A DNA stretch of 64,000 nucleotides from a virus. A program made the position numbers and the translations under genes. Positions 7,999 through 50,396 of the stretch are shown here, piece by piece. The first letter of the stretch is position 1. Each line of letters begins with the position of its first letter. Where the stretch lies: positions 1 to 64,000 of the IMG/VR virus record IMGVR_UViG_3300037423_000411. The stretch is one strand, 5' to 3'. The notes beneath the pieces are model-generated. The model had not been told where the DNA came from, searched no databases, and was given only the letters and a program-made list of their open reading frames with translations.

Positions 7999-8053
7999 AA
8001 CCCCCTGAGCGACACATGCCTGGTGAGGCGTGGTCGATATGGCTCAGGGGGTT
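7999..8053 (-). ncRNA. single TIGR-like stem-loop unit
   Basis: CCCCCTGAG-CCA-TATCGACCA-CG-CCTCA-CCA-GGCATGTGT-CG-CTCAGGGGG. Confidence 0.75.
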
Positions 8054-15866: not shown

Positions 15867-16107
15867 CGGCCAGAGCGACGAAATTATGGGCTGTGCGTAG
15901 TTACCTGGCCCTGGCCGGGCCTTGTGCTGAGCGGCATCTTTTGGTTCTCGAATGGAGCTGGCTCAGCAAGATCTTGAGTTGTCCGACGACTGAGGCGGAC
16001 AGATTTTGGTTCCTCGACTTCATTTGGCCTCAGCCAGATCTTGAGTTGTCCGACGACTTGAGGGGCGAGCGAATCTTGGCTTCGCATAAATCTCATGGCC
16101 CCTCAAG
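15867..16107 (-). ncRNA. TIGR-like stem-loop array, 4 units
   Basis: Units at 15867-15917, 15926-15967, 15990-16033 and 16057-16107, each stem-CCA-N14-16-CCA-N9-10-stem. Confidence 0.85.
15969..16058. repeat. exact 23-bp direct repeat used as inter-unit linker
   Basis: AGATCTTGAGTTGTCCGACGACT at 15969-15991 and 16036-16058. Confidence 0.95.
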
Positions 16108-16407
16108 CATCACGCTACGCGCGCACCTCTCGCGTGATCTTTCCCTGATACCTGTATGAAGGTGATCCGGGAGTGGCGAAGGGATGCAGAGGCAGAAGCC
16201 CCCTACCCCCAGAAACCGACTGGTTTCCCGGTGTAGAAGGACTCCTACGTCAAGCTGCATGAAGTATGACCGTTCAGCGGCTCGGGTACGCAGTCGTCGC
16301 CCCCTTTGCCTTCACGTACGGACTTCGGGCCGAGAAACGACACAACCCCTGTCGCGGATTAGCCGGGCCTCTGAAGGCGTTGCATATTGGCGACAGGGGA
16401 AGGTGGC

Positions 16408-16731
16408 TCAGTGAGCGTGCTGTGCGCGGTAAGCGGCAACCTCGCGCTGCTGAGCGGCCCTCACGTCGAAGTACTGCGGCACACCCCAGTCATCCACGTA
16501 GATGCCAACAAGCTGAGCCTTGGGCTGAGTCGCCACAGCCAGCAACCAGAACAGCAGCCAGAAACCGAAGGTGAACAGCGTCAGGATCGCGTGAACCGTG
16601 TTGTTCACCGGTGCTGGCATCCGCCAGACGTGTGCGACGCCGCTACCGACCCATGCGACGCGGTTACCCTGCGCCGCCTCCATCGCCAACGCGTTCTGGA
16701 GGATCATCTGCCGCTCTACCTGGTTGATCAC
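16408..16731 (-). CDS. small membrane protein
   Basis: VNNTVHAILTLFTFGFWLLFWL; class I promoter and CTCTCAC motif upstream. Confidence 0.7.
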   Translation of the reverse strand: MINQVERQMILQNALAMEAAQGNRVAWVGSGVAHVWRMPAPVNNTVHAILTLFTFGFWLLFWLLAVATQPKAQLVGIYVDDWGVPQYFDVRAAQQREVAAYRAQHAH

Positions 16732-16844
16732 TGTTCTGCCTCCTGGCTCCTTTACCGCTTGTGAGAGGTGCTGTCAAGGCCAGTATGCAGGATTAGTTGA
16801 CAGACGTCAACCACAGGCTACAAGAGGCCTCCGACAGTTTCTGC

Positions 16845-17090
16845 TCACCAGCCGTCCGGGATCATCTCCGGGTGGCCCAAGGCCTTCGCCCGACGTTTGA
16901 TGAGCGCCTTCGCGGCAGCAGGGTTCTTCGCCCGGCCGATGCTCTGGATCGCGCGACGGAGCGCGTCGACGTCAGGGATTGGGAAGGAACCGTCAGGCAG
17001 TGCCTGGTTCTTGTTCGCCAGTGTGTCGCGCTTCTTGGTGGAGAACTTACGGCTCGACAGCTCCACCAGCTTGTCGGTGTACTCGCCCAT
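16845..17090 (-). CDS. small basic protein, candidate virion internal protein
   Basis: ALPDGSFPI..L..AI...GRA..IKRRAKALG motif; N-terminus MGEYTDKLVELS. Confidence 0.7.
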   Translation of the reverse strand: MGEYTDKLVELSSRKFSTKKRDTLANKNQALPDGSFPIPDVDALRRAIQSIGRAKNPAAAKALIKRRAKALGHPEMIPDGW

Positions 17091-17100
17091 ACATGCGAAA

Positions 17101-17210
17101 TCGGCCCGGACTGGCGCTCCCACCGTGGGAAGCGTTACTACGATGGCCAGTCCGGGCCGAAGAAAGTGACCTCGCGCCGGATACACGGGTTCCGAGATGA
17201 CATGGCGAGG
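17101..17210 (-). ncRNA. TIGR-like array, 2 units
   Basis: 17101-17160 (15-bp stem, CCA-TCGTAGTAA-CG-CTTC-CCA-CGGTGGGAG-CG) and 17170-17210 (CCA/CCG boxes). Confidence 0.8.
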
Positions 17211-17211
17211 C

Positions 17212-17658
17212 CTAGTTCAAGAGCACGCCTTCGAGCATTCCGTCTTCCCGACGATAGACCACCATCAGGAGCTGACTGCCTCGCAGCATCCTCAGGCAGC
17301 CGCCACAAGGCTCGTCAGTCACGTAGATCGTCGCGTCGCGACGGTCTTCCTGGTCACTGTACATCACCGCATTTTGCTCAGCGTGCAGTGCGATGCAAGA
17401 CCCAGCGCCGGTGTCGTACGAAGAAGGCAGCTCAGAAGCCCCAGGAGGCAGCTCTGAGAGGCTCAAGAGGCCCCGAGGACACTCGCCCTTGAGGCAACTC
17501 TTACCACCCGCAGGCCCGCCGTTGTAGCCCGTTGCAACGATACGCCGGTCCTTGACGATGACAGCCCCGACCTGACGTCGGGTGCAATCGGCTCTCGCGC
17601 TGACTGCCTTCGCGATGCCGAGAAAATACTCGTCCCAGTTCGGGCGTTCAGGGCTCAT
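17212..17658 (-). CDS. dCMP deaminase
   Basis: CTRRQVGAVI, TGYNG, HAEQNA, PCGGC. Confidence 0.93.
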   Translation of the reverse strand: MSPERPNWDEYFLGIAKAVSARADCTRRQVGAVIVKDRRIVATGYNGGPAGGKSCLKGECPRGLLSLSELPPGASELPSSYDTGAGSCIALHAEQNAVMYSDQEDRRDATIYVTDEPCGGCLRMLRGSQLLMVVYRREDGMLEGVLLN

Positions 17659-21086: not shown

Positions 21087-21255
21087 GTCAACCCTCAACG
21101 GCGGACATTTACTGGGCATCTCTTAGGTTATGGCCGTTGAGGGTTGACCTCGGCATGCGTGTAGATCTTTGGCGCAAGCGACCATCTTCTGACGCACCGA
21201 GCTTGGTTGACCGGGCGGTAAGGTGTGGGCTTCGTTCACTTGTGGCCCGACCAAG
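21087..21255 (-). ncRNA. TIGR-like array, 3 units
   Basis: 21087-21148, 21149-21201 (degenerate, TCA box) and 21202-21255. Confidence 0.8.
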
Positions 21256-21349
21256 TTCAGTGTGGGGGCACCAACTTCCCACTCCCAGGCTCACTAACGA
21301 CTCCGAGCTTAAGCATCAGAGATGCTCGGCTCCCTGGCCCATACGCGCT

Positions 21350-21535
21350 TCACTCGCAGGCGAGACCGTCTCCGTCCGTGTCCAACGCCTTGTTGTAACC
21401 GACGTCACCCGGCGTCAACGGCAACTGTACGCCCGCCTGCTCGGCTTGCGCACACGACTGGAACTGCACCTGCGCGTCGTTGTGACAGCCCGCCAGAACG
21501 GCACACAGGGCCACTGACACCAGGAGACGCTTCAT
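21350..21535 (-). CDS. Excalibur calcium-binding lipoprotein
   Basis: LAGC lipobox; FQSCAQA..AG and GY...LDTDGDGLACE. Confidence 0.85.
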   Translation of the reverse strand: MKRLLVSVALCAVLAGCHNDAQVQFQSCAQAEQAGVQLPLTPGDVGYNKALDTDGDGLACE

Positions 21536-22191
21536 CAGCAACCGCCGTACTTGCAGCTGTAGATGTAGATCAACGTGAGGCCCGAGTTGCTGTCAGGCAG
21601 GGGCACGTTGTCCCACGACCAGGTGGTGAAGTTCATGACCCGGCTGTTGTACCCCGACGAGTTCAGGTTCTGAAGACCCAGCAGGTATCCGATCGAAGCC
21701 GACACGATGTGATCTCGACGCGTCTGGCTGCTGACGCAGCCCGCGTTCGCGGTGTTGATGTACACCGCAGGCCCGTTGGTCCACCGGTACATGCCCTCGT
21801 AGTAGTCGGTCTGACCGTTCTTCAGGTAGTTGCAGACGCTCGCCGTCGAGCTGTACAGACCGATCACCATGCGGCGAGAAGGCGGGTATCCGTCCGCTGC
21901 GCAATCGGTCGAGTAGTCCAGCGCGATAGCTCCGTTGGCCCTCAGGTTCCACTGCTGAGCGAGGTAGGCCAGCCGGTAGTACGTCTGGTCCGAGATGGCG
22001 TCCGGAATGCCCGCGCCCGGCTCCACGCAGATGTACGGAGACCAGAACATCTCACCATTGGCGTCCGGAGGCAGCGGCAGCGTCGTCGCGCCGGACGTGG
22101 TGGAAGACGACGCCTGAGCAGGAACACTGACGACCAGTGCTCCGAGTCCAAGCATCAGGAGTGCGATGACCGCACTCAGGGACTTACGCAT
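21535..22191 (-). CDS. secreted metzincin-fold-like protein lacking Zn ligands
   Basis: Signal peptide; ASIGYLLGLQN where HExGHxxGLxH is expected, followed by SRVM Met-turn-like motif. Confidence 0.55.
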   Translation of the reverse strand: MRKSLSAVIALLMLGLGALVVSVPAQASSSTTSGATTLPLPPDANGEMFWSPYICVEPGAGIPDAISDQTYYRLAYLAQQWNLRANGAIALDYSTDCAADGYPPSRRMVIGLYSSTASVCNYLKNGQTDYYEGMYRWTNGPAVYINTANAGCVSSQTRRDHIVSASIGYLLGLQNLNSSGYNSRVMNFTTWSWDNVPLPDSNSGLTLIYIYSCKYGGC

Positions 22192-22226
22192 CAGAGGATG
22201 CCTTTCTGTGGTTGGGACATATGAAG

Positions 22227-22342
22227 AACCCCCTGAGCAGCGAGTTATGGGCTTCGTAAGCTGCTGGCTCAAGGGGTTTGCTTCAGAAGAGCCCTTGAAG
22301 ACGTCGGTCACTGGAGAAACGGCAAGTTTTGGTCTTCAAGGG
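22227..22342 (-). ncRNA. TIGR-like array, 2 units
   Basis: 22227-22278 and 22292-22342, both CCA-N8-CG-N4/5-CCA-N8-YG inside stems. Confidence 0.8.
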
Positions 22343-22351
22343 AGTCTCGCG

Positions 22352-23074
22352 TTACGACACCGGCACAGCCGCGTCGATGAGACTGGCCAGCGCCTTGGTA
22401 CCTGCAGGATTCGGGTGCACGCCTCCACTGTCGAGGTACATCGCGAAGCGCGACGGCTTGGCGGCCAGGAAGCTCGCCCAAGAGATCACCGTGCAGTGAT
22501 ACTGCTCGGTGCAGCCCTGGTAGATGGCCTTGTTCACGATCATGCTGTTGCGCTGGTCGGACGGTGAGTACGCCGGTCGATTGACCTGCACGTCCACCCA
22601 GAAGATCTGAGTCTCCGGGAAATTGGTGTTCACGTAGTCGAGCAGACGCTTGATCTGAGCTGGCATCCCGAACGGACTCATCACGTCATTCGAGCCGACC
22701 GCCATGATCAGGTACTTCGGGATCATCGGTGTGAGGCTCTTGTTCAGAATCTCGTCCACCGTCAGCTGTGTGTTGCGGCCCGACCAGGCGTTGACTGCCA
22801 GGCGTGCACCAGGATTGGTCGCCGCGACGTCCTTGTAGTCCCGCACGGTGATCGAGTCGCCCGCGATCATCCACGCCGACCGCGTGATGTAGTCGGGGGT
22901 CGAACGGATCGGGGAACTCACCGGTGCGGCAGCCGGTCCGGAGCCGTACGTGCCGTAGTTGATGCTGCCGTTGGCCTTCAGAACCCCGTACGAGATGCCG
23001 AAGGACGCGATGAGACCGACAAAGAAACAGATGACGGCATTCCGCCAGGGGTGACGCATACGTGGGAATCGCAT
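22352..23074 (-). CDS. membrane-anchored SGNH/GDSL hydrolase
   Basis: AGDSIT, SGR, GSND and DSGGVHPN blocks; N-terminal TM helix. Confidence 0.88.
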   Translation of the reverse strand: MRFPRMRHPWRNAVICFFVGLIASFGISYGVLKANGSINYGTYGSGPAAAPVSSPIRSTPDYITRSAWMIAGDSITVRDYKDVAATNPGARLAVNAWSGRNTQLTVDEILNKSLTPMIPKYLIMAVGSNDVMSPFGMPAQIKRLLDYVNTNFPETQIFWVDVQVNRPAYSPSDQRNSMIVNKAIYQGCTEQYHCTVISWASFLAAKPSRFAMYLDSGGVHPNPAGTKALASLIDAAVPVS

Positions 23075-23096
23075 TGGTGCCTCCTGTGTGAGAGAA

Positions 23097-23224
23097 GCTG
23101 AGCAAAATGACATGGTTTTCGGCAGTGACTGGCTCAGCAGGACCATCGTCTCAAACGGAGGTTACAACTGTCAACTACGGGACGCGCTCGTTTTGGGTGT
23201 CGGTTCCATGTGGTCCCGTAGTTG
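23097..23224 (-). ncRNA. two TIGR-like units flanking a promoter
   Basis: 23097-23138 and 23172-23224 on either side of the palindromic -35 box at 23160-23175. Confidence 0.8.
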
Positions 23225-23228
23225 AGTC

Positions 23229-31873: not shown

Positions 31874-32100
31874 TCAACCCCCTGAGCGTGAGCGTGTTGG
31901 GTTCGCTCGATACCCGTGTGGCTCAGGGGGTTGATTCGGAGGCGTCGGGTCAGTGGTTACACGACACGTCTGTGGCCTCCCGTAAAAGGCCCCCGAAGCG
32001 GGGTCATCTTGGGTCTCGACGCAAGTTGGCTTCAGGGAAAAGTTGTGACCTCCTGAGCGGCTTCCTTCTGTGTGAAGCACAACCCGGCTGGCTCAGGAGG
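31874..32100 (-). ncRNA. TIGR-like array, 4 units
   Basis: 31874-31934, 31938-31980, 31991-32037, 32049-32100. Confidence 0.85.
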
Positions 32101-32364
32101 TGGTCCGGTGAATCGGGCAGTCAGGATCTGGCTGACAACGGCATTGTCGCTGTCTGCGCTGCTTCTTCTGCGTCTCGTAGTCCGCGAACGCTGCCGCTCC
32201 GACGACTATCAGCAGTGTCCCTGTGAACAGCACCGCGATCGCCAGCGACCACCCTCCGAAGACGTACTCCAACCCGTTGAAGAGCCCGACACCGATCACG
32301 ACGCTCACGGCACGAAACACCATCCGGCGTCTCATCGTGCTCATCATGACCGTTGAATCGACCC

Positions 32365-32688: not shown

Positions 32689-33366
32689 GATCTGTCTCCT
32701 TCAGCGGTGAGAGTCGCTTACAGGGACAGAATGCCAGTCAAGGTTACAGCTGTCAACCCTCAGACAGGCGCGAGCCCCTGAACGCGGCAGGCACGCTAGA
32801 ACACGTCAGGGGCTCGGCGAAGGAAACCTTATCGGGTCCCTGACCGGTTGCAACAACCGGTCTGTCCGACTTTCGTGTTCCAACCTCACGATCGTACAAA
32901 CCCGCAGGTCAGGAGCTTGTAACGACCACCGAAGCGGTTCTGACCCACAAGTAACCAGCCAGTATCGACCGATTCTTGCAGACGCTTGCTACACGCTCAC
33001 GATCGACGGTTCTTCGCCCACGGCTCACGCTTCAAGGCCTCGTAGTAGACCGTCCTCCCGAGCGCGTGTACACGTCCCAGCCGCATCTGATGCCGATAGT
33101 GGTACCACGAGTCCCGAGCCTTCTCCCAACGACTCATGCCTGCCTCCTCCATGTACCGCTACCTCGCGTCATAGGTGCGAGATCGTAGCAACCCCCCAAC
33201 CTAACCGGTCACAGTTCTGTCTCGACTACCGAGCATGGACGAAGAACTCAGCCCCGAACTGCAAGAGGTCGCTGACCTGCTCTGGGAAGCAGCACACGGC
33301 GCTCCACCGCTCGTTGAGGACAAGGTCTGGTGGATGGCTGTGCGTCGAGGCTTGGGAGCGTGAGAA

Positions 33367-33578
33367 CACCCTCTGAGCGACGTCCTATGAGTTGTGTAAG
33401 GAGGCTGGCTCAGAGGGTGCTTGAGGCGAGTCGAGGCGTCTATGGAAGACACTGTTCGGTTGGACTCGCCCCCTCAGACGTGGCGACGGATTTATGTGCC
33501 TAGTCGGCGTATTGGCCTCGCCTGAGGTCTGACGGACCTGAGCGCGAAAGTTTGGCTTCCCGTACGGTATGGCTCAGG
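33367..33578 (-). ncRNA. TIGR-like array, 4 units
   Basis: 33367-33419, 33425-33470, 33473-33526, 33537-33578. Confidence 0.85.
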
Positions 33579-35068
33579 CCCTGCTTGAGCTCCCTTCAGG
33601 CAATGGATCTATGGTCCTCGCTTGGCGACTGGCCCGAAGGGAAGTTCTGTCCTCGCTGCGGGGAAAACCTGGTGCCCCGTCAACGCATCACTCATGGCAG
33701 CGAGGAAGCTTGGTTCCCGCAGACGAAAAACATCCTGGGTATCGGCAGGACTTGGTCTGCGGGAAGTCTCTAGTGCGTCTTACCCCACTGACGCAGCTTC
33801 TCAAGCATCGTAGGGTGTGTCAGCACGTCGTGCACGTAGGTCGCCTTCAGGTGCAGCCTCTCGGACTCAGGCAGGTTCCCCAGCCCTGGCATCCCCGGCG
33901 CGATCTCCTGCTCGAAGTACTTGCGCGCCAGCTCCTTGTCCACCGCAAGCGCACCGAGCGCAGCTTGCGTCGTCCCGTAGTGCACGCCCTTGTTGAACGC
34001 CCACATCCAGCACTCGCGCATCTCTTCGCCGAACGTGTCCTGCCGATCGAACTGCTGCTTGGCCTCTTCCTCCATCTCGAAGAACTCGTCCAGGTTCACC
34101 TGTTACCTCCTCTCCCACGCGTTGGTCGCGAAGCAGTCGGCACACGGCTTGGCCTGCGTACAGTACGGCAACGGCAGCATGATGAGGAACAGCCTGACGA
34201 GCACGTAGACCTTGCCTCGGTACGTGATCATGCCAACCCCTTCCTACGCCGGTTGTGCAGCTCCGCGATCGCGTACGCACGTGCCTTGTCCTGCCCCATC
34301 CCGATGCTGACGTAGCCGTCCTTGTAGTCCTTCCCCCAGCCGAGCGCGATGCACTCGTTCAGCGTCAGGTCCGCAGGATCGATCTCTGTCATCGCTCACC
34401 CCCGTCAGGCTCGGTCTTGTCTTGCACACGCGCTCGTAGCGTCTGTACGACGTACCTAGCGCCTTTCGGCAGTGCGTTAGGCCCGAAAGTTCTTTCCCGA
34501 GGCTGTATATCAAAATGCCTCTGGAGACGATCACGCAAACGGCCCTCTCCCGAAGCGTCAGAGGTCACTTCATGCCTGGTCATGTCAGCTCTTCTCCTTC
34601 CGTGCTCTACGTGCCTGCAGGTACTTCGTGATCCCTTGCCCTCGGTGCTTGAACTGCCAGGCGCAATACAGCGTCATCAGCGACGCGAGGTTGAACCCTA
34701 CGAAGTTCATCGGGTGATCGGGGAAGTACCTCGGCCCTACCGTGAACGCACCCTGTATCAGCGCTCCGACCGTCGCCATGACCCCGTAGAGGATTCTCAT
34801 CGGTACCTCCACTTGCACAGCACGATCGTCGGCCGCTTCAGGCACATGTCTTCCACCGGCTTGTACGGCTCCCACGACAGACCTCCCAACCACGCAGGCC
34901 TGCCACCCAGCATCCGCGTGCCCTTCGGAAGTACACCCCACGTCCGCGACCACTTCGTACCGAGCACCGTGATCGCGTGACCCCCTACGAACCGACTGTG
35001 CTTCTTGATCCGTACCGGGAGGCGTTTCTGTCCTGGTTTCAGGCTCTCCTGCCACAGCTTCAGCCTTG

Positions 35069-37172: not shown

Positions 37173-37200
37173 GGCTTGAGGATCGTCCTCCTATGACGAA

Positions 37201-37598: not shown

Positions 37599-38190
37599 CC
37601 TTCGAGGCGTATAACCAGCTGCCCCCGCTGTCGGCCTGCGTCTTGCCGGACAGAACATCGCTCACGGTTCCACGCACTCCCTTGGCAGGACCCTTCCAGC
37701 CATCGGCCTTGAAGATCTGACCCCACCGATCCACGAAGCAGTACACCGAGGACCCCAGAGCAGCGTCTGAACCCTCAGGTGTCAGTTCCTGCTGAACGAT
37801 GCGCTGGTACGTGCGGCCTCCCTTGCTCACGTAGAACCGGTGCTTGTAGGGCCACTTCTTGTCGGCGTCCTGATCGGTCAGGAACTGAGCCAACGCTTCG
37901 GCAGGATTGGCCTCGGCCCACGCCTTCTGCGTCTCCGCGTAGTGCTCGGGGTTGTTCTGCTCCAACGTCGTTGTGAACTGCGGGACGCCTGGCACGTGGT
38001 TCGGCACGAAGTCTTCCGGCTTCGGGGAACCGTACTGCCCATCGCTGCTACCTACGTGACCGATCTGCTCTTCGACCTTCTCGATGACGACGTAACTCGT
38101 GCCGTGCAACATCTCTTCTGCGATGGCGACCTTGGCGTCTTCGGTCAGGTGTGCGAGGACCTGCAGACCGTACTTCTCCAGCGTGTTCAT
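37594..38190 (-). CDS. hypothetical protein
   Basis: CTCTCAC-GAGGAGG upstream; C-terminal SVYCFVDRWGQIFKADGWKGPAKGVRG motif. Confidence 0.65.
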   Translation of the reverse strand: MNTLEKYGLQVLAHLTEDAKVAIAEEMLHGTSYVVIEKVEEQIGHVGSSDGQYGSPKPEDFVPNHVPGVPQFTTTLEQNNPEHYAETQKAWAEANPAEALAQFLTDQDADKKWPYKHRFYVSKGGRTYQRIVQQELTPEGSDAALGSSVYCFVDRWGQIFKADGWKGPAKGVRGTVSDVLSGKTQADSGGSWLYASKG

Positions 38191-40778
38191 GATGTTTGCC
38201 TCCTCGTGAGAGAGATCTGATTCAGTACGCCTGAGCTTCGACGGCTGCTTTGACCAGCGTCTGCAGGGCCGCATCTACGATCTTCGGATCTGATCCCTTG
38301 GCGCCCGACAGGGCATACAGCGAACGACGCCCCAGGAACCCGTCAGAGCCCGCGTAGCGGTATTCCAAACCGAACTGTGCGGCGTAGTCGACCATTCCGA
38401 CAACCTCGTGCTGACGAACCGAGATCGTGACCACAACCGGCTTACCTTCGAAGGTGGCTACGTGCACGACTCTCATCGGTTCGCACGCTCTTCCTGAGCC
38501 TTGTGCAGTTCGGCCATCTTCTGCTGCAGCTGGTCGGTCATCGCGTCGCACGCGTTCTTGACCTCTTCGGCGGCCTTGGTCCAGGAGGCTTGCACATCCT
38601 GAGCAACCAGCTCCTGGTCGGCCTTTCGGCCACGAGCGGCCAGTTGAGCATCCGTCTCGGTCAACCGACGCCACCTGACGATGTCACGCCTGCGGTCGCT
38701 TGCTTTGCTCATGATTGCCTCTTTCGGGGTGAGAGACCCGTTGTTGCCCTGACTTCTTCAGGATGCCTCATTGGGTTACAGGTGTCAACCCTTAGACATG
38801 CTTGAATCGAGATCACCTGAGATTCGGTGTCTCGATCTGATGTTTCGGAGGCTTCGTCTCGCGGTGCCTGAAGTCGGTCTGTCCGTCTTGTGCGATGCGA
38901 TCTGATGTGCAAAGGCATGCCTAGAGGGGCTTGTCTGCCGACTGAATATGGCCTTGCACGAGCCTGTATGAAGTTGCCTTGAGTCCCCGCCTGTTCGGCC
39001 TTGATCTGCGGTACTTCTGAGCCTGAAAGTTGCCTCGGAAGGCTGTGGCGTCAGTTCTTTCGCGCTTGATCTGGCGTACTAAGTGCCCGACTGATCAGAA
39101 GCTTACCGCACGCGAGGTGATCCTGTGTAGAGGCGTCTCGTGTGGCGTGCGGTAAGTGCTCTGACCTGCAGGTTTGTCTCTCTCGCGTGGTGCATTGGTG
39201 TGTACGGAGGAGGTATGGCGAGAGGACGGATCTGAACTCACGCGGTGTGCATTGGGGTGTCTTGATCACGGATGGCGTGAGTGTGACTCGTTTTCTCTCA
39301 GAGTGACTCGTGAGGATCTCAGGAGGGGGTTTTTACGCTCAGCGGACCTTTCGGCCTCTCTTGTCCACATGCCTGCTTACTTCATGTGTGAACACTGCCT
39401 GATCGAGTTGAGCCTGATCTACCTGTGTGACCTTGAGGACTGGTTCGTGTCCTCTCTTCGCTACCAGCTTTGCGCCTAGTGCTAATCGTGCTTTGACTTG
39501 CTTGTGATAGTTCTCCGACTTCTTGTTCATCGTTGATTCCTTCCTGTGTGTTGACGGTTGTCACTCTCGTTTGAGTGAGAATGGCTTTTGGTAGTCACTT
39601 GATTATGAGAGTGACTGTCATGTTTTTCTCTACGGGTGTAGAGGGTTCGATCTGACTGCTTCGATGTTCGAGTTGATGAGTCGGCTGAGGTAGGTCCCTG
39701 CCTCCTGATACGAGTTTTCCCTGATGGCGAGCAAGAAACCCTGCAGCAGAGGGAGAGCTTCGTACGCGTTCAAGGTGGTGCGCAGTTGAAGCTGTACGGT
39801 GAGATCTACTGTCTGTTTCATCGTGAGGTGTGAGCACAGAGCGAGATCCTGTGCGGCGAGTGCCCAGCTGTAGTTCTCTTGAGGCATCCCCTGTGTAGCT
39901 GTCACTCCCCGAGCTTCCTTTCGAGATACTCCCTGAGCGTTGCTACCTGCCCTGCAGGGAGGTTCGGAGCGACTCTGTGCAGCCTGATCCAGTCGTAGTG
40001 CTGACCTGTCCTGATGATCGCGTGAGAGCCGCATGAGCAGTGTGCGCGTCTGAGATCTGTTCTCAGGATGTCGAGCCTGAGCAAGTTGTGCTCAAGTACG
40101 TGATCTGCTCGGTAGGGCTGCCTCATCTTCAGTACGTCCCTAGTGCGTCTTCGATGTCCTTGATGCCTTCGACCGTGTAGGTGGTGCCGTCAGCACAGAT
40201 CACCATCCAACGATCTGTGCTCTCGTAAATCGCCTTGTAGAACACTTGGCTTGTGAGATCCCACGAGTCGGTGAACCCGAGATCACTCAAGACTCTGCGC
40301 TGCTCAGGCGTGAAAGTGCTGTTGGACAGGCTCACTGCTTCTCCCACTGGTACGGGTAGGCATCGTGCATCATCCCCATGACGTCCTTGAAGCATCCACA
40401 GCACAAGTAGGCCGTGAGTGGGTGGAACGGGATATCGGTGGTCTCCTCGATCTTGTGAGCGGCTGGTGCGTTACAGCTGTTGCACCTCTCCTCACGCGCC
40501 CAGACAGGGAAAGGATGGTCTGCACGATCGTCGGTGATCATCTCGGGCTGCATGAGCTTGGCCCTGCTGATCAGGATGCTGTCGAGCAGAGGTGAGCCGG
40601 TGATGCTTGGCTTGGGTTGATCTGTCATCTCTGCAGCTCCCTGTTCGCCTTCTCCAGCGCTTTGTCGACCTGACTGAACCCACCCGCTTGTAACCCTCCA
40701 CAGCGACCACCAGAGCCCGTAGAAGCTGTCTGTAGTCCGCACCTGGTTCCCAGTCGTTGGTCATGCTCTACGTACGGC

Positions 40779-40807
40779 AAAACCCCCGAGGTTCGATCGG
40801 GGGTTTT
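40779..40807 (-). terminator. intrinsic terminator-like hairpin overlapping a class II promoter
   Basis: AAAACCCCCGA-TCGAACC-TCGGGGGTTTT. Confidence 0.7.
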
Positions 40808-41300
40808 GAGATGGTCAGTACTTCGGCTGAACGGTGACAGTACGTCCTGCCTCACCGTTCGCGAACAGATCGGCCATGCCGTACTGGTCGGTCATGATCT
40901 CGTAGTGCAGTCCTGCGTTACGCGAAGGCGTGTACGCACGGATGAACTCTCCGGTGTAGGTATGCCCGTTGCCTGCGATGAACGCGACGCGAGCGCCCTT
41001 ACGGAAGCGCGGAGGCTTCGGACTGGTGCCTCGATGAGTGATGGTTGCCATGATCTGTCTCCTTTGAAGCGGTGAGAGTCACTTCTCGCAAGTGCTGTTG
41101 ATGATCGGGCCGTATTCCCACTTGGTGGTACCAGGGGTGTAGCGGTAGCCGTAGGTGGTCGTGGTGACTGTGTGACCGCCACTGGCCTTGCACGCGTTGT
41201 CGCTCTTGACCGCGAACACCACGCACACGCCGATCAGCGCGACACAGGCCACGATTCCTGCGATGAAGATCTTGGTGAACCAGTCCATTTTCCTGCCCCT

Positions 41301-41316
41301 AGCGGTGAGAGTCGCT
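41301..41316 (-). promoter_or_regulatory. start-associated ACTCTCAC hairpin (representative of about 18 copies)
   Basis: AGCG-ACTCTCAC-CGCT just 5' of the RBS; stems covary between copies. Confidence 0.8.
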
Positions 41317-42539
41317 GTCTTGCCCTTACCTCTCTATAGTGCCTGAGTAGTTGTCAACTGTCAACCCCCTACAGCCAACCAACTTCGGCCTCGTGAATGT
41401 CCAGCCAGCCGATGTACTCACCCTCGCGACTGAGGATGGTGAGGTTGCCTATCTGGTTCTTCACCAGACGTGCCTCAGGCTGTGCGTCCACGATCTCCTG
41501 TAGTGCCCTGATGAGTGCCTGAGGCTCACCGTAGAAGTACCTGTCAACAGGATCTCTCATACGGCCTCCTCACTCCTGATGACCTCGGCCTCCTTGATCT
41601 CGGACACCGAGGTAGGCAACCAATCTGTCTTCTGCGGGATGTTGGCGATAGCCCACCGACCGCCCGGCCGGTTCAGCTCTTCCTGCACCGACTGACCTGT
41701 CACCTCGACATCATCAGGCAGCACAAGCACGATGTCTGCAAACTCGACGCGCTGTGCTCGCACACGTAGCTTCACTTCAGTTCCACCCTCACATTGACCT
41801 GCCACACAATCGAGTCATCCTCGCGAGTGTGGTGCTGATATGCCTTCCCGTACACGTACACAAGCTGTTGTGAGTCGACCGCGAAGAATGCTTCGGCGGC
41901 CTGGTGCGCGTATGCCTCGATCTCGGATATCGACTGTCCGAGAGCCGCGAACTCGATGCTGTTGATGCTCATCATCAGAAACACCCGTTGTACTTCGCCA
42001 TGACAGCCGCGCGCTGATCAATCGAAAGAGGCGTCATGAAGTCGGCCACTACCTGTGCTCGTTGCATCGCGAGATCGGAGTACCAAGAACCGCCAGGCCC
42101 GTTGTAGGGCTTCCATTCGACCTCGACATTGTTGTCCTCGACTTGCACATGCAACGGGCCACCAGTGCCACAACCCTCAGTCGCGTACAGCAGGTCGATC
42201 GCATCCATGATCTCGCGTGCATTGTCAGGGAGATTGGTAGGTGCGCCGTACTCCTCTTTCCAGCATCCACAGCACATCAGTCAGGCAGCTTTCGGCTCTT
42301 GGCCTGCTGCCAGATCGCGGCAAGCCTCGACACGGTGTCCTGTGTGTCGCGCAGTCGGTCGTACTCCTCAGGCGTGAGCAGTGGCCTCGAATCGGCAAGG
42401 TCCATCACCGTGGCGAGTGCGTGTGCGTAGCTCCACAGCCCGCTCACAGCGAAGAGATCTGATTCCTTGATCACGAAGTACGTGCCTGGTGCGAGGATCT
42501 CACCATTCGCCTTCTTGACGACGTACTTCTCTTCGACTG

Positions 42540-43502
42540 CTACTTGATCGTCTGTTGACACAACGGACATGTTCCTGCCTCCTTCAGTGTCTCGTGTAGT
42601 TCCTGTTCGGCTTCCTGAATGTGGATCTCCAGGTCGTTGATCTCTCGTTCCTTCTCAGCCCTGAAAGCAACCTGTGCGTTGTACCGCTTCGCCCAGGACT
42701 CAACTTCGTTGATCTTGGCCTCGACCTCTTCAAGGTCTTGCATGTCCCCCGCAACCGACTTGAGGAGACTGGTCAGCTCATCGGCCTTGGCCTGAGCACT
42801 GACGATGAGACGCTGTGCGCTCGTGTAACGGCCTGAGAGGTCTTCAAGCTGAGTGATACGTGAGGAGGCGTCAATGGCCGCAGAAAGCAGCTCTCGTGCC
42901 TCCTCGACAGCCTTCTTGCGTGTGCCGAGATCGGCATACTCGGTCTTCACGCGAGTCACTGCCGCATCAGCGTCCTTGCGCCTGATACCTGCGAGCTTCA
43001 GCATCTCCTGTCGGCGCCTGTTGGCCTCTCTGGCGGCCTCGGCAAGCATGCTGACGTTGGTGAGATCGCCCAGCACCTTCGCGGTAGCTGAGCCTGTCTC
43101 TGCCAGCAACCAAGGGCTGTCGAACTGCGTGCTGAAGAACAGGTCAGGATCGCCCTCAGGCGTCTTCAAGACCTTCTGCACATCGGCAGGGACTGTGGTG
43201 CCGCACTTCGCGTACAGCTCACTGTGCCCGTGCTCGTTGACCAGCTTGTAAGAGCTGACACCCTTCCCACGCTCCAGCTCTACCGCTGTGCCGTCGCTGT
43301 ACGTCAGTCTGAGCTTGGCTGAGGTCTTTCCTTTGCTCACGTACCCAGGACTGATGCTGTTACGTGAGACGGCCTTCAGTGCCCTACCGAACGCGCTCTT
43401 GCCTGAGTTGGAGTGCCCAACGACCACAGTCAACTTGCCCAACGGGATCTTCACGTCGTACAAGGACTGGAAGCTCTCTACCGCAAGCTCGCTGATGGTC
43501 AT
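42540..43502 (-). CDS. Rad50/SbcC-like ATPase, N-terminal half ending in a Zn hook
   Basis: VESFQS, Walker A VVGHSNSGKS, Q-loop STQFD, coiled coil, terminal CPLC. Confidence 0.85.
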   Translation of the reverse strand: MTISELAVESFQSLYDVKIPLGKLTVVVGHSNSGKSAFGRALKAVSRNSISPGYVSKGKTSAKLRLTYSDGTAVELERGKGVSSYKLVNEHGHSELYAKCGTTVPADVQKVLKTPEGDPDLFFSTQFDSPWLLAETGSATAKVLGDLTNVSMLAEAAREANRRRQEMLKLAGIRRKDADAAVTRVKTEYADLGTRKKAVEEARELLSAAIDASSRITQLEDLSGRYTSAQRLIVSAQAKADELTSLLKSVAGDMQDLEEVEAKINEVESWAKRYNAQVAFRAEKEREINDLEIHIQEAEQELHETLKEAGTCPLCQQTIK

Positions 43503-43507
43503 GCTTT

Positions 43508-43515
43508 ACGTACGG
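43508..43515 (-). promoter_or_regulatory. class II promoter -10 element CCGTACGT (representative)
   Basis: Copies at 7988, 11643, 16314, 24205, 40770, 43508, 57064, 59938; four lie 5-6 nt before an ATG. Confidence 0.7.
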
Positions 43516-43731
43516 ACTTCGAGCCTCAAATCGGCAGACAGTCCCAGTGCACGTACCCCTGCCACTTCTCATGGCGAGTGATCAGCTCACCTTCTTTGAC
43601 AGGGTGATCCCCTGCGTCACACCACGAATCGAACGGTGACGGGAACACCTCACGCCGGTGCCTCGGATGCATGTCATCGATGATGAGCAGATTGATCTTC
43701 TGGCCGTCCATGTTTCTGCCTCCTGAAATGA

Positions 43732-43793
43732 GTGTGAGGTCAGCTTCGGGACTTTATGGGTTTCGTTCCCTTGTCTGGAAGCTGACCTCACAC
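43732..43793 (-). ncRNA. single TIGR-like unit
   Basis: 16-bp perfect stem around CCA-GACAAGGGAA-CG-AAAC-CCA-TAAAGTCC-CG. Confidence 0.8.
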
Positions 43794-43797
43794 GGTG

Positions 43798-43971
43798 TTA
43801 CGGCACCCTACGACGAACCCACGGACTCGGCCAGACGACACCGAGCAGGTAGGACAGAGCCAGGAAGAACAACCCAGCACCGAGCAGGTTGAAGTGCGTC
43901 GAGACGTCCACTCCAAACGTGTAGAGGAAGAAACACACAGCCGCGAGGACTGCGGAAACCACGCCTGCCAT
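43798..43971 (-). CDS. small two-TM membrane protein
   Basis: 57-aa MAGVVSAVLAAVCFFLYTFG...LGAGLFFLALSYLLGVVW, below the ORF track cutoff. Confidence 0.55.
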   Translation of the reverse strand: MAGVVSAVLAAVCFFLYTFGVDVSTHFNLLGAGLFFLALSYLLGVVWPSPWVRRRVP

Positions 43972-45064
43972 GATTACCGCTTGGTCGGGGCAAACGACGG
44001 GAAGCTCTCGCCGCCTACCTCAGGGTTGGCGTCACGGAAGACGTAGCCGAGACCGTCCTCACCGCGTGCATCGATCAGCGCCTGCGCGTCTTCCTGAGCC
44101 TGCTTGGCCGCAGCTTCCGCGCCGTTGTCGGGGGTAGCCGTGGTGCCGTCCTGCACAGCAGCCTGCTCGGCCTGAGCTTCGGTCACGACTCCCTGATCGG
44201 TGGTCTCGGCCGTGCGAGTACCGGTCTGGTCAGCTTCGACCGTAGGTACGTCAGGTGCAGCAGGCGCCGAGTACGCCGGTTCCGCGTTGTCACGTGCCAT
44301 CTCAAAATCTCCTTGGTCTTCGACCATGACGGTGCGCCATGCTCTCACTGGATCGGCCCCTACTTGCTATGTATGGATCGCCCGTTTTCCTGTTCCCACG
44401 CCTTAAAACGACGCTTGTCGTGTAGAAAATTCTCCACGAACCGGGTACCGAGGCAACACCATTGACCAGCTTTCGCCCGGCAGGAAGGGCAGTCGACCTT
44501 CAAGGCAGGCTGATGCTCCAGTGTCCTCATCTTCACGAGCGCCTGCTCTGCCCACCGTGGCGGATCGATCAGAAAGGCCTTCCGCTTGCTCGACCACTCG
44601 ATGTTCAAGACAGTCTGCCGCTTCGCTGCCATCTCGCTGAGATCTGCAACCTCACGAGGCTTCAGCTCGATAGGATCGCCCTTCTTCACTTCTGCACCGT
44701 GTTCCGTATCGCCGCCACTCGTGCACTCCGTGTCTTCGTCTTACCGTTGTCACGCGGCATGTCCCGGTACTTCTCAGCCCAAGCCTCGAACCGTGTGCGC
44801 TCACCTTCGTGTTCCTCGATCGCCTGAACCAGGTGCAGAGGACAGTAGTTGCCGGACATCGCATCGATGATGAGCATGGAACGCGTACTGGCGGCCTTGA
44901 GTGCGAACTTCGCACGCTTCCCGCACCGGTAGGCATCCGCCTTCCTCGGGTCGCCTCGATCGGCCTTCTTCACCCAGCCTTTCTGAGCACAGCACTGCAC
45001 ATCACCCGTGACCTCTTTGACCCAAGGACTGGCGAGAATCATCTCCCGCCAGTCCTTGTACTCG

Positions 45065-45847
45065 TCACTTGACTGTCTGACCATCCGGCTCGTCCTTCAC
45101 TCCGTGCAAGCGCCGGGATTCCTTCCACAGGCCCTTGAGCATTTCCTTGGACATCACCCGCAACGCGTCCGCGTGCCGGTGCCCATCGTTCCACGGTGAG
45201 CCTGGCTGTGCGGGCTTGCCTGACGGCCCGCAACGCACGCAGGGGTTCACATGCAACTTGCCCTCGGTGTGTGCCTTGCGCTTGTCGTACACCTCACGAT
45301 TGCCGGAACGAAGCATGCTCTCGGCAATCAGATAGGCCCGCGTCTTCGCGGTGGTCGACCAGTTGGCCTTCACACCCTTCTTGCGTCGCATCGCGTTGCC
45401 TTCGGCGTCCACGTGCAAACCGCAGTAGGCCCACAGCTGCGAGACCGTGCGCGGCTGACCGGTGTTGCCGTTGATGTACGGGTCACCGATGACACCGAGC
45501 AGACGCGCGGCCTGCTTGTCGCCCAGGCCTTTGATGCTCTTCACGTACGGGCCGAGCTTGTCGTTCTTCATGCGCTTGGTGAGCTGCTTGATCGCGGAGT
45601 CTTCCAGCTCCTTGAGCCCGTCGACCATCTGCGTCATGTTGCGCACGTCAGGGTGATCTGCGGTCAATCCGAACCCACGCTCTTCACCGTCCGAGTCGAC
45701 GGCGGTACGCGTGAGCTGCCGCAACCGGTTCTCGTTGGCGAGCCGCAGCCCCTCGATGTCATCCAGGATGATGGACGACAGTGCCAGGAAGGGATCTGCG
45801 AACGTCGCGAATGCTACTTCCTGTGCTGCATCGACAGTGTCTGTCAT
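45065..45847 (-). CDS. TasA-like Nop-domain (IS110 C-terminal-like) RNA-binding protein, no nuclease domain
   Basis: 260 aa; coiled coil, SIKGLGDKQAARLL, SQLWAYCGL, RRKKG...WS, YDKRK, HRHADALRVMSKEMLKGLW; no RuvC/DEDD or HNH; adjacent CCA/YG stem-loop array. Confidence 0.85.
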   Translation of the reverse strand: MTDTVDAAQEVAFATFADPFLALSSIILDDIEGLRLANENRLRQLTRTAVDSDGEERGFGLTADHPDVRNMTQMVDGLKELEDSAIKQLTKRMKNDKLGPYVKSIKGLGDKQAARLLGVIGDPYINGNTGQPRTVSQLWAYCGLHVDAEGNAMRRKKGVKANWSTTAKTRAYLIAESMLRSGNREVYDKRKAHTEGKLHVNPCVRCGPSGKPAQPGSPWNDGHRHADALRVMSKEMLKGLWKESRRLHGVKDEPDGQTVK

Positions 45848-45872
45848 TTGGGTGTGCCTCCTTCTTTGGTTG

Positions 45873-46089
45873 CCCTGAGCGCGGCGAAACCTGGGTATCA
45901 ATATCCTTTGGCTCAGGGAAGATTGTTGCCCAAGGCGATGAACTTTGAGTGCTGTGGGGAATTTGGCCTCGGGAGTTCTGGACTCAGCAGCGTGCACTCG
46001 ATGGGTGAGAGCAGATGTGTTGGCCGCTGAGAAGTTTGAGCGGGGCAGCTGACGAATACTCTTGGGCGATCCTCGGTTCCTGGTCAGCT
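45873..46089 (-). ncRNA. TIGR-like stem-loop array, 4 units, directly upstream of the tasA-like gene
   Basis: 45873-45918, 45929-45973, 45983-46031, 46047-46089. Confidence 0.88.
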
Positions 46090-46094
46090 CAGAA

Positions 46095-46649
46095 TCAGGC
46101 AGCCGTTCCGAGCACCTTCAGGTGCACCTCGATCGGCAACTCTCCGAAGGTCTTCACGTCGTACTCGGTGAGCAGAGCCGCGTAGCCGTGGAACCGAGCC
46201 GCCCACGCCTTGTTGGCCTCGGCAAGCTTCTCGCGCTGCTTCGCCGCGTGCATGAGATCGTCGTACGTGCAGTCCTTGAGGAACTTGTAGTCACCCTGAC
46301 CGATGCTGATGCGATCACGCAGATGCTGCTGCCAGCCGTCACGAATCGCAGCGACCTTGGTGCTCGTGGTCGTGGACTTGATCCCACCAGCGTGCTTGCT
46401 GTTCACGATCTTCGGGAAAGCCGACGCCGGGGGCATGTTGGAACGCGTCCGCGTCGTGCCCAGGTAGTGCCGGACGTAGTCGATCAGCAGCACTTCGAGC
46501 ACCTCGTGATAACGCGCCTTCGGGATACGTTTCAGTATCTCCTGCATGATCTCGTGAACATCGGTGAGATCGGTGTTGTTCAGGATGTCCGTCAGGATTC
46601 CCCTGAGCGTGAGCGTCGACATCAGTTCCTCCTGCAGTTGTGCCACCAT
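46095..46649 (-). CDS. hypothetical protein embedded in the TIGR-like locus
   Basis: 184 aa, AGGAGG RBS, TIGR-like units on both sides. Confidence 0.75.
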   Translation of the reverse strand: MVAQLQEELMSTLTLRGILTDILNNTDLTDVHEIMQEILKRIPKARYHEVLEVLLIDYVRHYLGTTRTRSNMPPASAFPKIVNSKHAGGIKSTTTSTKVAAIRDGWQQHLRDRISIGQGDYKFLKDCTYDDLMHAAKQREKLAEANKAWAARFHGYAALLTEYDVKTFGELPIEVHLKVLGTAA

Positions 46650-46677
46650 TTCGTTTACCTCCTACAACGTTTTAATT

Positions 46678-46726
46678 CCCGACAACAAAGGTCGTATGGG
46701 TAACCGAGAGGAGCTTGGTCGCCGGG
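46678..46726 (-). ncRNA. single TIGR-like unit
   Basis: CCCGGCGA-CCA-AGCTCCTCT-CG-GTTAC-CCA-TACGACCTT-TG-TTGTCGGG. Confidence 0.8.
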
Positions 46727-47258
46727 AAACCCCTGGTCATGCTTCCTGAGTGTTCGTCCAGCCTGCGTAAGTCACTTCAGCCTCGTAACCACAGTTGACG
46801 CACGTGTGTGTGGTCTCCGGTGCCTCAGTAAGGTCTTCGGCCTCGTACACACCCTCAGGAGCGACGAACTCGACCTCTTGTGTGGTCTTGCACATGGCAC
46901 AGTCCACGAGCTGTGAGAGCCGCAGAGGCTCCTGGTCTCGGTCTTCAGGGTCTTCGTCCACACGTGCCATGAGATCTAACGTTCCTCGCCGGTAGTAGTC
47001 ACTGAATTCTGGCGTCTTCATCAGGCTCGCCTGCCGGGTTGTAGAGCACCCAACCAACCTGCATCGCCGCAGAGATCATGCGATCTACGATCTCTTCACA
47101 CATGTCCATCCGCTCACCCACGAACTCGTTGCTGTCGCCGTACTGGTCCTCAAAGAGAGACTCGGCCATCGCCTTGCGTGCAGGATGATGGCGTACGGCA
47201 CACAGCTGGCAGCCTTCCGGGCTGCCGTACTCCTCAGGGTCGTGCAAGCAGTCGACGT

Positions 47259-48155
47259 TCACTTGGTGGTCTTCTTCTCGTCGTCCACAACAACCACTTT
47301 GGTCACGATGCCGTCCTTGACCAACATCTTCTCCTTCGCGGGAGACCAGTCAGGCTCCTTCTTCTGGCGTTCCTTGACCGCGAACGTCGACCACGCCCGA
47401 ACATGTCCCTTGTAGGTACACGGCCAGACCGTGCCGTCTTCCAGCACGAAGACACGATCGCCCTCTGCACCCGCAGGAGACGCCGACTTGATCGGAGCGG
47501 ACAGACCTGCAGGCCAGTCCCCTGTGATCAGCTGCTGAGCCGTGTAGTAGCTGTTGGACGACAGTGACGTCTGTCCAGGCTCGGTCTCGGACTGGTAGTA
47601 GGTGCTTCCGCTCCAGGAAGAGCCGACAGGCTTGGTCGCGAGCTGTGTGCTCTGCTCTTCGAGTGGCTGCAGGTAGCCCAGCGCCATCAACAGACAAGCC
47701 AGCGACGGCCGGTACTTCTTTTCCAGCCGCTTCCGCGTGTACTCAGGCAGGTCAGCCAGACGGTCTGGACGGAGATTGTGCAACAGATCGGCGGCCTTGA
47801 CGCGCATAGCGCCCTCGCCTGCCGCGATGACGCGCTTGAGGTACTTGGTCTGCTCCTCCTGAGGGTTCTTGGTGACGGCCCACACGATACGTACCACCGA
47901 AGCAGGGAAACCTTCGTCCAGCAGCGTCTTGAAGGTCACCTTCGGGACGTCTTCGACCACATCGTGCAGGAACGCTGCCGCGATCTCTTCGATCGAGCCT
48001 CCCAGCAGTCGTACGCCCTGCGAGACTGACACCAGATGATTGAGATACGGCTGCTTGAGCTTGTCCGTCTGACCCTTGTGATGCTCGGCGGCGAACTCAC
48101 GAGCATGCGCGACCAGCGTCAAGCGCCCGATATCAAGAGTCGCTTCAGAGGTCAT
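47259..48155 (-). CDS. HD-domain (p)ppGpp hydrolase-like protein (Mesh1/SpoT-HD) with C-terminal extension
   Basis: FAAEHHKGQ, PYLNHL, AFLHDVVED, VKAADLLHN. Confidence 0.85.
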   Translation of the reverse strand: MTSEATLDIGRLTLVAHAREFAAEHHKGQTDKLKQPYLNHLVSVSQGVRLLGGSIEEIAAAFLHDVVEDVPKVTFKTLLDEGFPASVVRIVWAVTKNPQEEQTKYLKRVIAAGEGAMRVKAADLLHNLRPDRLADLPEYTRKRLEKKYRPSLACLLMALGYLQPLEEQSTQLATKPVGSSWSGSTYYQSETEPGQTSLSSNSYYTAQQLITGDWPAGLSAPIKSASPAGAEGDRVFVLEDGTVWPCTYKGHVRAWSTFAVKERQKKEPDWSPAKEKMLVKDGIVTKVVVVDDEKKTTK

Positions 48156-49679: not shown

Positions 49680-50240
49680 TCACGACCCTTTGATGCGCTC
49701 CCAGGTGTGAGGGTTCCAGCTGTAACCCGTCGTATCTAGAAGGTCCGCGCTGGCCACCGTGGACAAGATGATGTCCGCGTGATCGAACGCAAGCGGGAGC
49801 TTCACGGCGTCCTTGAGCTTGAACCACCGAGCCTTCACCGCGTCATCGCCCGGCCGAACCGTAGGTGGCTTGCCATCCCACTTCAGCCAGTAGAGATACG
49901 GCAGGGAGATGCAGCGACCGCGCGGGTCACGATCGGGAGCGGACGCGGCCTCCTGAGGCTCCAACTCAATCGGATCAAGCTCCCAATGCGTCTCCTCCAT
50001 CAGCTCACGAGCTGCGGCCTGAGCCGCTGTCTCGGTCTCATCGATAAAGCCACCTGGCAGCGCCCATGAGCTCTTGTACGGCCAGTTCCCGCGCTCGATG
50101 AGCAGGACCTTCCAGTCCTTGCCTGGCTTCCTGTGAAGCGCCACCACGTCCACCGTGACCGTGATGATCGGGAACTTGCTCGGGTCGTACGACTCCAGGA
50201 ACGCCCGCTCCTCCTCTGATTCAGGGATGTACTCGCTCAT
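49680..50240 (-). CDS. Nudix hydrolase (ADP-ribose pyrophosphatase/NrtR-like)
   Basis: WALPGGFIDETETAAQAAARELMEET, PDRDPR, LAFDH. Confidence 0.9.
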   Translation of the reverse strand: MSEYIPESEEERAFLESYDPSKFPIITVTVDVVALHRKPGKDWKVLLIERGNWPYKSSWALPGGFIDETETAAQAAARELMEETHWELDPIELEPQEAASAPDRDPRGRCISLPYLYWLKWDGKPPTVRPGDDAVKARWFKLKDAVKLPLAFDHADIILSTVASADLLDTTGYSWNPHTWERIKGS

Positions 50241-50396
50241 TGCTCCTCCTTCCGGACCTTGAATAGAAAACCATTGGGAAGCGCCACTCGTAGCACGCCT
50301 TTGTTCGTCTGCAAGTCCACCCACTTCTCAGCCTTGCTGACCTTCTTCACGACACCTTCCTGCGGCACAGCGCCAGGGGGTGCCCAGATGTATGCG

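Follow-up and report, generated by a model that had tools for sequence, protein, structure and literature searches.

Dispersed hairpin units, a Tas-like protein and a conserved neighbouring gene: a probable stem-loop TIGR-TasA system in a soil phage genome

Considered here is a candidate RNA-guided system in phage DNA from IMG/VR record IMGVR_UViG_3300037423_000411, positions 1 to 64,000 of which constitute the window (the whole stretch analysed, 64,000 nucleotides in length), the complete genome being 133,696 bp. A protein-coding gene, termed tas, is present near 45 kb with five hairpins upstream of it on the same strand, as an earlier sequence-only reading of the window had described, and with a second gene, termed the partner, among the hairpins. 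The individual features, with z referring to the minimum free energy of folding, are:

45065..45847, minus strand: tas gene, 260-aa TasA-type protein (open reading frame list, phmmer against the PDB, AlphaFold2 model, Foldseek)
45873..45918, minus strand: tigRNA-like unit of strict grammar, 8-bp stem (minimum free energy -17.3 kcal/mol, z -2.90)
45929..45973, minus strand: tigRNA-like unit with inner boxes CA...TCA for YG...CCA, 8-bp stem (z -2.21)
45983..46031, minus strand: tigRNA-like unit with a 7-nt spacer A (CCA-N7-TG-N7-CCA-N9-CG), 9-bp stem (z -3.94)
46047..46089, minus strand: tigRNA-like unit whose first box D is GG, not YG, 7-bp stem (z -1.45, the weakest of the five)
46095..46649, minus strand: partner gene, 184 aa, phrog_4604 (E 1.3e-26; PHROG and tblastn), within the interval earlier taken for an array
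46676..46728, minus strand: tigRNA-like unit of strict grammar, 11-bp stem (z -3.08)

The tas gene and its product

The minus-strand open reading frame containing tas extends over 45065-45997, and it is an internal ATG at 45847, with GGAGG 9 nt 5' of it, that opens the 260-aa protein (MTDTVDAAQ...); the same Met-Thr start is found in the five closest homologues (P0001-P0005, 73-87% identical). The core motifs originally quoted for the protein, KGLGDKQAARLLGVIGD, LWAYCGLH and HRHADALRVMSKEMLKGLW, are all in the translation, and the proposal that it has no nuclease domain is borne out, with Pfam showing no nuclease family. The sole Pfam match is a sub-threshold one to Transposase_20 (E 0.17; 12.7 bits versus a cut-off of 21.3), DEDD_Tnp_IS110 is not matched, and assignment in PHROGs is to phrog_4285, which carries the label ‘transposase’ (E 4.9e-87). 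When phmmer was run against all PDB sequences at E up to 10, there were two distinct matches and both are Tas proteins: TaTasR (9MTY, chain 9mty_A; E 3.6e-14, query residues 77-199 versus TasR residues 149-268), and TasH of a Salicola phage (E 6.4e-5, query residues 88-254). In the 260-aa protein there is no equivalent of TasR's N-terminal RuvC region, or of the RuvC/HNH part of TasR/TasH generally.

Modeling with AlphaFold2, for which the input was a 28-sequence alignment (A1, including 27 of 120 listed homologues from a total of 1407), yielded a predicted structure with a mean predicted local distance difference test (pLDDT) score of 88.8 and a predicted template-modeling (TM) score of 0.81. 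In the model a coiled-coil hairpin (helices 19-46 and 66-95) precedes a helical C-terminal Nop domain, and the 13 residues that follow the last helix form a short C-terminal tail. Comparison of this model by Foldseek with Nop, IS110 and Tas structures, a check suggested by the sequence-only reading, placed Tas chains best: the top PDB match is 9mty_B (E 2.1e-9, TM 0.65, 241 aligned columns), ranks 1-10 are TasR or TasH chains throughout (241-259 aligned columns, TM 0.65-0.68), the IS110-family recombinases ISCro4 and IS621 come next at a TM of about 0.5, and Nop5 and Prp31 match weakly. By sequence and predicted fold the protein is a Tas homologue and, given a coiled coil plus Nop domain with no nuclease, what Faure et al. 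2025 name TasA. The coiled coil, N-terminal to the Nop domain, is a predicted dimerisation element, the dimer itself likewise being predicted. The gene is single copy in the complete genome.

From the perspective of its surroundings, tas is overlapped at its 3' end by 20 nt of a 132-aa cysteine-rich open reading frame (44686-45084, minus), which has no Pfam or PHROG match and no homologue in the 66 related loci described below. Other minus-strand genes of the neighbourhood encode an SbcC-like exonuclease/ATPase (phrog_16465, 42540-43502), an HD-type phosphohydrolase (phrog_990, 47259-48155) and a NUDIX hydrolase (phrog_1198, 49680-50324).

Hairpin units at the locus and across the genome

In the arrays described by Faure et al. 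2025 (PMC12045711), box C is CCA, box D is UG and every spacer is flanked by one box C and one box D; the cytosine of box C is paired to box D's guanine, a pair seen in solved complexes (PMC12045711; Xu et al. 2026). The same account describes stem-loop arrays accompanying TasA in which a variable palindrome is in place of the edge repeat, and such arrays with TasA also feature in Xu et al. 2026 (bioRxiv 10.64898/2026.09.09.750476). The grammar that had been proposed as common to the five hairpins near tas is followed exactly by two of them (stem-CCA-N8-10-YG-loop-CCA-N8-10-YG-stem), while each of the other three departs from it, in an inner box or in the length of a spacer. One of the exact pair, 45873-45918, reads CCCTGAG-CCA-N8-TG-ATAC-CCA-N8/10-CG-CTCAGGG and ends 26 nt before the tas ATG. 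The other, 46676-46728, starts 8 nt past the stop of the previous open reading frame and ends 27 nt before the ATG of the partner, 5 nt past whose stop codon the unit at 46047-46089 starts. All five retain the outer stem in the RNA minimum-free-energy fold (z -1.45 to -3.94). In the unit at 45973-45929, to which the R2 covariance model matches with an E of 0.12, and again in that at 33421-33365, the inner G:C has become A:U, such that YA...TCA replaces YG...CCA and the boxes covary. The idea of one array over 45848-46726 had to be given up because the 184-aa open reading frame at 46095-46649 lies inside that interval and parts one hairpin from the other four.

A strict scanner, requiring both box pairs (CCA and YG) and a stem of 7 or more pairs with a closing C:G pair, identifies 23 units in the complete genome, all of them on the minus strand. 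In 100 dinucleotide-preserving shuffles the mean was 0.23 strict units and the maximum two. All but two of the 23 are within 7999-46728, the remaining two being at 68.7 kb and 81.5 kb. Hairpins with the outer boxes number 43 and comprise the 23 strict units, 14 with one deviation and six without inner boxes, so that about 37 units, at about 15 intergenic sites, are distributed along some 75 kb. Every strict unit has the guanine of its 3' YG paired to the leading C of CCA, as the scanner requires. Within the window, the features beyond the immediate vicinity of tas are:

43732..43793, minus strand: isolated strict unit 1.3 kb downstream of tas, its stem 16 bp long (strict scan)
39102..39282, minus strand: three-unit cluster, with a strict unit at 39224-39180, a unit whose first box D is AG at 39282-39236, and an outer-box-only hairpin at 39156-39102
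33365..33765, minus strand: largest cluster, four strict and two near-canonical units (scan)
31874..32101, minus strand: three strict units, of which one has a 6-bp stem, clustered with a degenerate one (scan)
21087..23225, minus strand: three intergenic gaps holding five strict units plus a near-canonical one (scan)
15867..17212, minus strand: four-unit strict array at 15867-16108 and a strict unit at 17160-17101 (scan)
within 15867..17212, minus strand: unit with a variant second box C at 17212-17168 and an outer-box-only hairpin at 16399-16346 (scan)
7999..8053, minus strand: solo strict unit with a 12-bp stem, 4 nt past the stop of the upstream open reading frame (scan)

Rfam has no family over the units. 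Its sole match is a tRNA gene (RF00005, 65.2 bits; 20913-20985, minus) about 100 nt from the units at 21087-21254. Covariance models R1-R3 recover 19-22 units here, all on the minus strand. Since these models are biased to CTGAG-type stems and perform poorly on other phages, the scanner was used instead on fetched contigs. (Alignment A4 represents four of the 21 strict units of the window, those with 8-4-8 geometry.) Also, the joined spacers of the strict unit at 68709-68770 recur with one mismatch in a degenerate hairpin at 133284-133326, near the right end, and one of the two may be a decayed copy of the other.

The minus strand carries nearly all genes of the phage, and there are 13 sites where the start of a unit or array falls in the interval from 3 nt ahead of to 9 nt past the stop codon of the open reading frame upstream. 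A promoter and terminator scan of 44900-47200 detected no sigma-70-like promoter and no minus-strand terminator, U-tract terminators included. With the genes so oriented, unit starts at stop codons and neither promoter nor minus-strand terminator in that interval, the simplest reading is that the units would be co-transcribed with the flanking genes. CTT is present at the 5' base of the stem (positions -6 to +5) in 10 of the 23 strict units and absent from 13, versus 8.7% at random positions, an enrichment that agrees in part with the CUU at the stem base described as a processing motif in Xu et al. 2026.

Related loci and the partner gene

Homologues of the Tas protein number at least 1407 at E up to 1e-5 in a word-index search, with the closest among the matches listed being 87% identical and none of those listed having a recorded Pfam domain; the 28-sequence alignment has 48 invariant columns. 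Cultured phages with a homologue account for 91 records, all at less than 60% identity, and these are phages of Mycobacterium (83), Gordonia (5), Arthrobacter, Rhodococcus and Microcystis (one each). This host distribution of the relatives, together with a G+C content of 59.7%, is the ground for supposing that the 134-kb soil phage studied here probably infects an actinobacterium. GenBank labels for the homologues are transposase, DNA-binding protein or hypothetical protein. One homologue (P0041), on a 2.3-Mb contig of Nesterenkonia rhizosphaerae, has the UniRef name ‘DUF222 domain-containing protein’, and DUF222 is not matched by the 260-aa protein in Pfam at E up to 1.

A set of 66 loci, from two Cluster A mycobacteriophages (Kanely and BigPaolini) and 64 IMG/VR contigs, was subjected to the strict scan with the minimum stem set to 6 pairs. 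The scan yielded 357 strict units in the orientation of tas and 10 in the opposite one, with at least one tas-strand unit in 61 of the loci and none in the other five. The majority (219, in 57 loci) are up to 700 nt upstream of tas, 45 (25 loci) are inside it, 39 (15 loci) are up to 700 nt downstream and 54 (21 loci) are farther away. The claim of a TIGR-Tas-like locus with TasA thus holds in light of the Tas homology by phmmer and Foldseek, the lack of a nuclease and the recurrence of the grammar in 61 of the 66 loci. In L004-L066 the intragenic units are about 350-550 nt into the tas match, and none is inside tas of the phage here. The homologues with intragenic units have a long variable insertion at A1 columns 257-291, where the protein here has a short loop. 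A published parallel is BlTasA, with a unit inside tas at the wedge loop (bioRxiv 10.64898/2026.09.09.750476). When related units are compared, stems and boxes are kept and spacers differ, as between Kanely and BigPaolini for units 1 and 3 and between L032 and L034, where the intragenic unit has two compensatory stem changes.

Dispersal of units is not confined to the phage with which this account began. Whole contigs were examined for three of five other large records, and G003 (the record behind L029), a complete 119-kb phage, has 26 strict units from 5.6 to 85.7 kb, seven on one strand and 19 on the other, and a single tas at 49.1 kb; G001 has seven units and G004 six.

The partner gene is conserved too. 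By tblastn, 42 of the 66 loci, those of Cluster A mycobacteriophages at about 30% identity among them, have a homologue as the immediate same-strand upstream neighbour of tas, and the other 24 have none at E up to 1e-3; homologues of four other neighbouring open reading frames were in none of the 66. At least one unit is between partner and tas in 34 of the 42 partner-bearing loci. A word-index search for partner homologues gave 26 unnamed proteins. Alignment A2 represents 22 of the 42 partner-bearing loci, chosen for open reading frames of 149-181 aa and exclusive of L001 and L002. The predicted structure of the partner (pLDDT 85.7) consists largely of helices and includes a small hairpin. 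In structural and profile comparisons the best E of a PDB profile search was 0.013, to an unrelated protein; Foldseek against the PDB had no match at E up to 0.001; a VIA-align wide search had a best Z of 5.0, to generic long helices; and the ESM Atlas gave no usable match. Pfam on 23 members revealed no family common to more than one, and no ParB family at E up to 1, with none among the Foldseek and VIA-align matches either, so the partner is not recognisably tasParB at the sensitivity of these comparisons. A predicted complex of Tas and partner scored 0.00, which counts neither for nor against binding.

In Kanely and BigPaolini the tas homologue overlaps the start of an annotated Cas4 exonuclease gene by 4 nt. 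The Cas4-adjoining module (L001 2513-4023; L002 2486-4005) is about 2 kb from the immunity repressor gene. As to closer relatives of the phage, megablast of 44000-48000 against a phage collection found no match, a 978-aa protein of the phage found none among viral contigs, and a metagenome scan with Tas gave an identity of at most 56%. By Tas identity (82-87%), the evident relatives are the contigs on which P0001, P0002 and P0004 are encoded. Pieces of contigs from three or four further runs on soil or rhizosphere (X2-X5; four of six runs) map on 31000-47500, nearly all without differing letters, for which reason the same or a near-identical phage is considered present in several samples. The X2-X5 contigs provided no usable variation over that interval.

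Interpretation, alternatives and relevance

The 134-kb soil phage very probably has a stem-loop TIGR-TasA system, to which the locus belongs. On the mechanism suggested by published relatives, hairpin units would be transcribed within the phage's own minus-strand polycistronic RNAs and released as RNAs of roughly 45-60 nt, in each of which the stem would hold two box C/box D pairs (CCA and YG) framing two 8-10-nt spacers. A dimer of the 260-aa TasA would bind one hairpin RNA via its two Nop domains, the two spacers would base-pair with neighbouring segments, one on each strand, of a 16-20-bp DNA site and, as TasA is without a nuclease, the complex would stay on the site and block transcription or another DNA transaction. 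The proposal of RNA-guided DNA binding draws on experiments with PlTasA and MbTasA. Cryo-electron microscopy structures of PlTasA are described by Guan et al. 2026 (bioRxiv 10.64898/2026.08.11.744272), with TasA complexes binding DNA, and MbTasA and BlTasA are described as binding target DNA and repressing transcription (bioRxiv 10.64898/2026.09.09.750476). Expression, processing, DNA binding and repression by the phage system would all be by analogy to these relatives.

Several considerations weigh against this interpretation, one being that expression is by analogy rather than from the phage itself. Another is that target searches, which covered the phage's own genome and 920 kb of related phage DNA, were empty. 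With 24 strict units, spacers joined both ways and up to four mismatches permitted, no target was found in the phage's own genome, and both spacer arrangements equalled two scrambled controls. With 405 units from all fetched loci against the related phage DNA, the outcome was background: no exact match, and three one-mismatch matches per arrangement versus three and none in two controls. Furthermore, three of the five local hairpins are off the strict grammar; the box C/box D pairing is partly built into the counts, since the scanner demands CCA, YG and a stem; and units beginning 3-9 nt past stop codons could double as mRNA 3'-end structures.

The last point leads to an unlikely alternative, that the hairpins function mainly at the RNA level, in mRNA 3'-end formation, stability or processing, with the Tas-like protein binding them to control the transcripts of the phage and no DNA targeting involved. 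The positioning of a unit or array at the stop of the upstream open reading frame at 13 sites, the distribution of units over about 15 intergenic gaps rather than in one array, and the empty DNA target search are all in its favour. However, the two variable segments match tigRNA spacers in length and box framing, and their divergence between related phages while stems and boxes stay constant fits guides better than structural elements; further, solved TasA complexes bind DNA, and the minus strand of 44900-47200 is without U-tract terminators. That the gene is a remnant of an IS110-family transposase, with the hairpins as leftovers of bridge RNA, would accord with the PHROGs label and several GenBank annotations, the weak Transposase_20 match (E 0.17) and the presence of IS621 and ISCro4 in the fold search at a TM of about 0.5. 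It is scarcely credible in view of the lack of a DEDD/RuvC domain, the E of 2e-9 for Tas structures versus 9e-4 for IS110, the abundance of homologues with their 48 invariant columns, the syntenic position of the gene in the 66 loci, and arrays of many units, not one two-loop bridge RNA.

A different type of alternative retains TasA as the DNA-recognition module and has the 184-aa partner as effector, or as an obligatory processing or loading factor. That the partner immediately precedes tas in the same orientation in 42 loci, Cluster A mycobacteriophages included, and that units separate the two genes in 34 of these, point in this direction, as does the occurrence of partner and Tas homologues on equal-sized contigs (27769, 5790, 70418 and 137105 bp). 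Against that, a partner was not found at E up to 1e-3 in 24 of the loci, it belongs to no recognisable enzymatic or nucleic-acid-binding family, and published TasA systems, as described in Xu et al. 2026, work in Escherichia coli without such a protein; a two-protein variant is accordingly a doubtful proposition, if one worth bearing in mind.

How a TIGR-TasA system in the phage would relate to known systems can be considered at several levels. The closest counterparts by published description are PlTasA (from a Peromyscus leucopus gut contig), BlTasA (Bifidobacterium longum) and MbTasA, which have the same nuclease-less coiled coil and Nop domain. The published stem-loop TIGR-TasA systems are described as having the same two 8-10-nt spacers framed by CCA and YG, variable palindromic stems, units upstream of tas as here (in relatives of the phage also inside and downstream) and, as for 10 of the 23 strict units here, CUU at the stem base. 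They differ, as far as those descriptions extend, in that here about 37 units are present over roughly 75 kb, far past the flanks of up to 10 kb on either side of tas that are the scope of TIGRFinder (Xu et al. 2026), and a conserved 184-aa partner gene lies between parts of the array. TIGR-TasR and TIGR-TasH (TaTasR, 9MTY; SpTasH, 9W04 and 21KL) share a homologous Nop core, by the phmmer and Foldseek values given above. The protein here, however, has no RuvC or HNH, and variable stems stand instead of conserved edge repeats, with the 13-residue C-terminal tail instead of a 27-residue Y/H processing loop. The IS110 recombinases (IS621, 8WT6/8WT9; ISCro4, 9T56) have an RNA-binding Nop-like domain in common with it, but the present protein lacks both a DEDD catalytic domain and a serine-recombinase-like Tnp domain, nothing points to mobility, and the guides are many and short, not one bridge RNA. 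The operons of TasA and tasParB (PMC12045711) likewise have a second protein-coding gene along with tasA and arrays; the partner here shows no ParB signal in the comparisons above, and the published case is described as having dual-repeat arrays.

With the small nucleolar RNA (snoRNA) ribonucleoproteins of box C/D type (Nop5, Nop56/58), the likeness is in the coiled-coil dimer plus Nop domain, in guide RNAs that contain box C/D pairs together with two guide segments, and in scattered guide genes. The structural match is weak (3nvk, E 0.55), no kink-turn/L7Ae or fibrillarin partner was seen, and published Tas relatives target DNA, not RNA. Faure et al. (PMC12045711) contrast clustered tigRNAs with sparsely distributed snoRNAs, and a limited literature search that included the Xu et al. 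2026 preprint found no text on genome-wide dispersal of units. A tentative combination, rather less probable than not, is of a genome-wide, snoRNA-like arrangement of guides with a needed second protein, as distinct from a local one-protein array. If so, about 40 units between early and middle genes may be cut from polycistronic mRNAs, with guide production coupled to mRNA 3'-end formation; the phrog_4604-family protein may serve in processing, loading or effector action, and the guides may be aimed at related phages or the host.

Systems of the TIGR-TasA kind were already published in 2025-2026, and what stands out in the present case is how widely the units are spread over the genome, along with the conserved partner. 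The natural role and the targets of nuclease-free TasA are a question posed in the Discussions of Faure et al. and Xu et al. From a survey perspective, units tens of kb from tas would escape searches limited to 10-kb flanks. A complete phage genome with one tas, about 37 units and the partner offers the full guide repertoire in its full genomic context and, with the partner-array-tas module present in cultured Cluster A phages of Mycobacterium smegmatis, ordinary phage genetics could test function, processing and targets.

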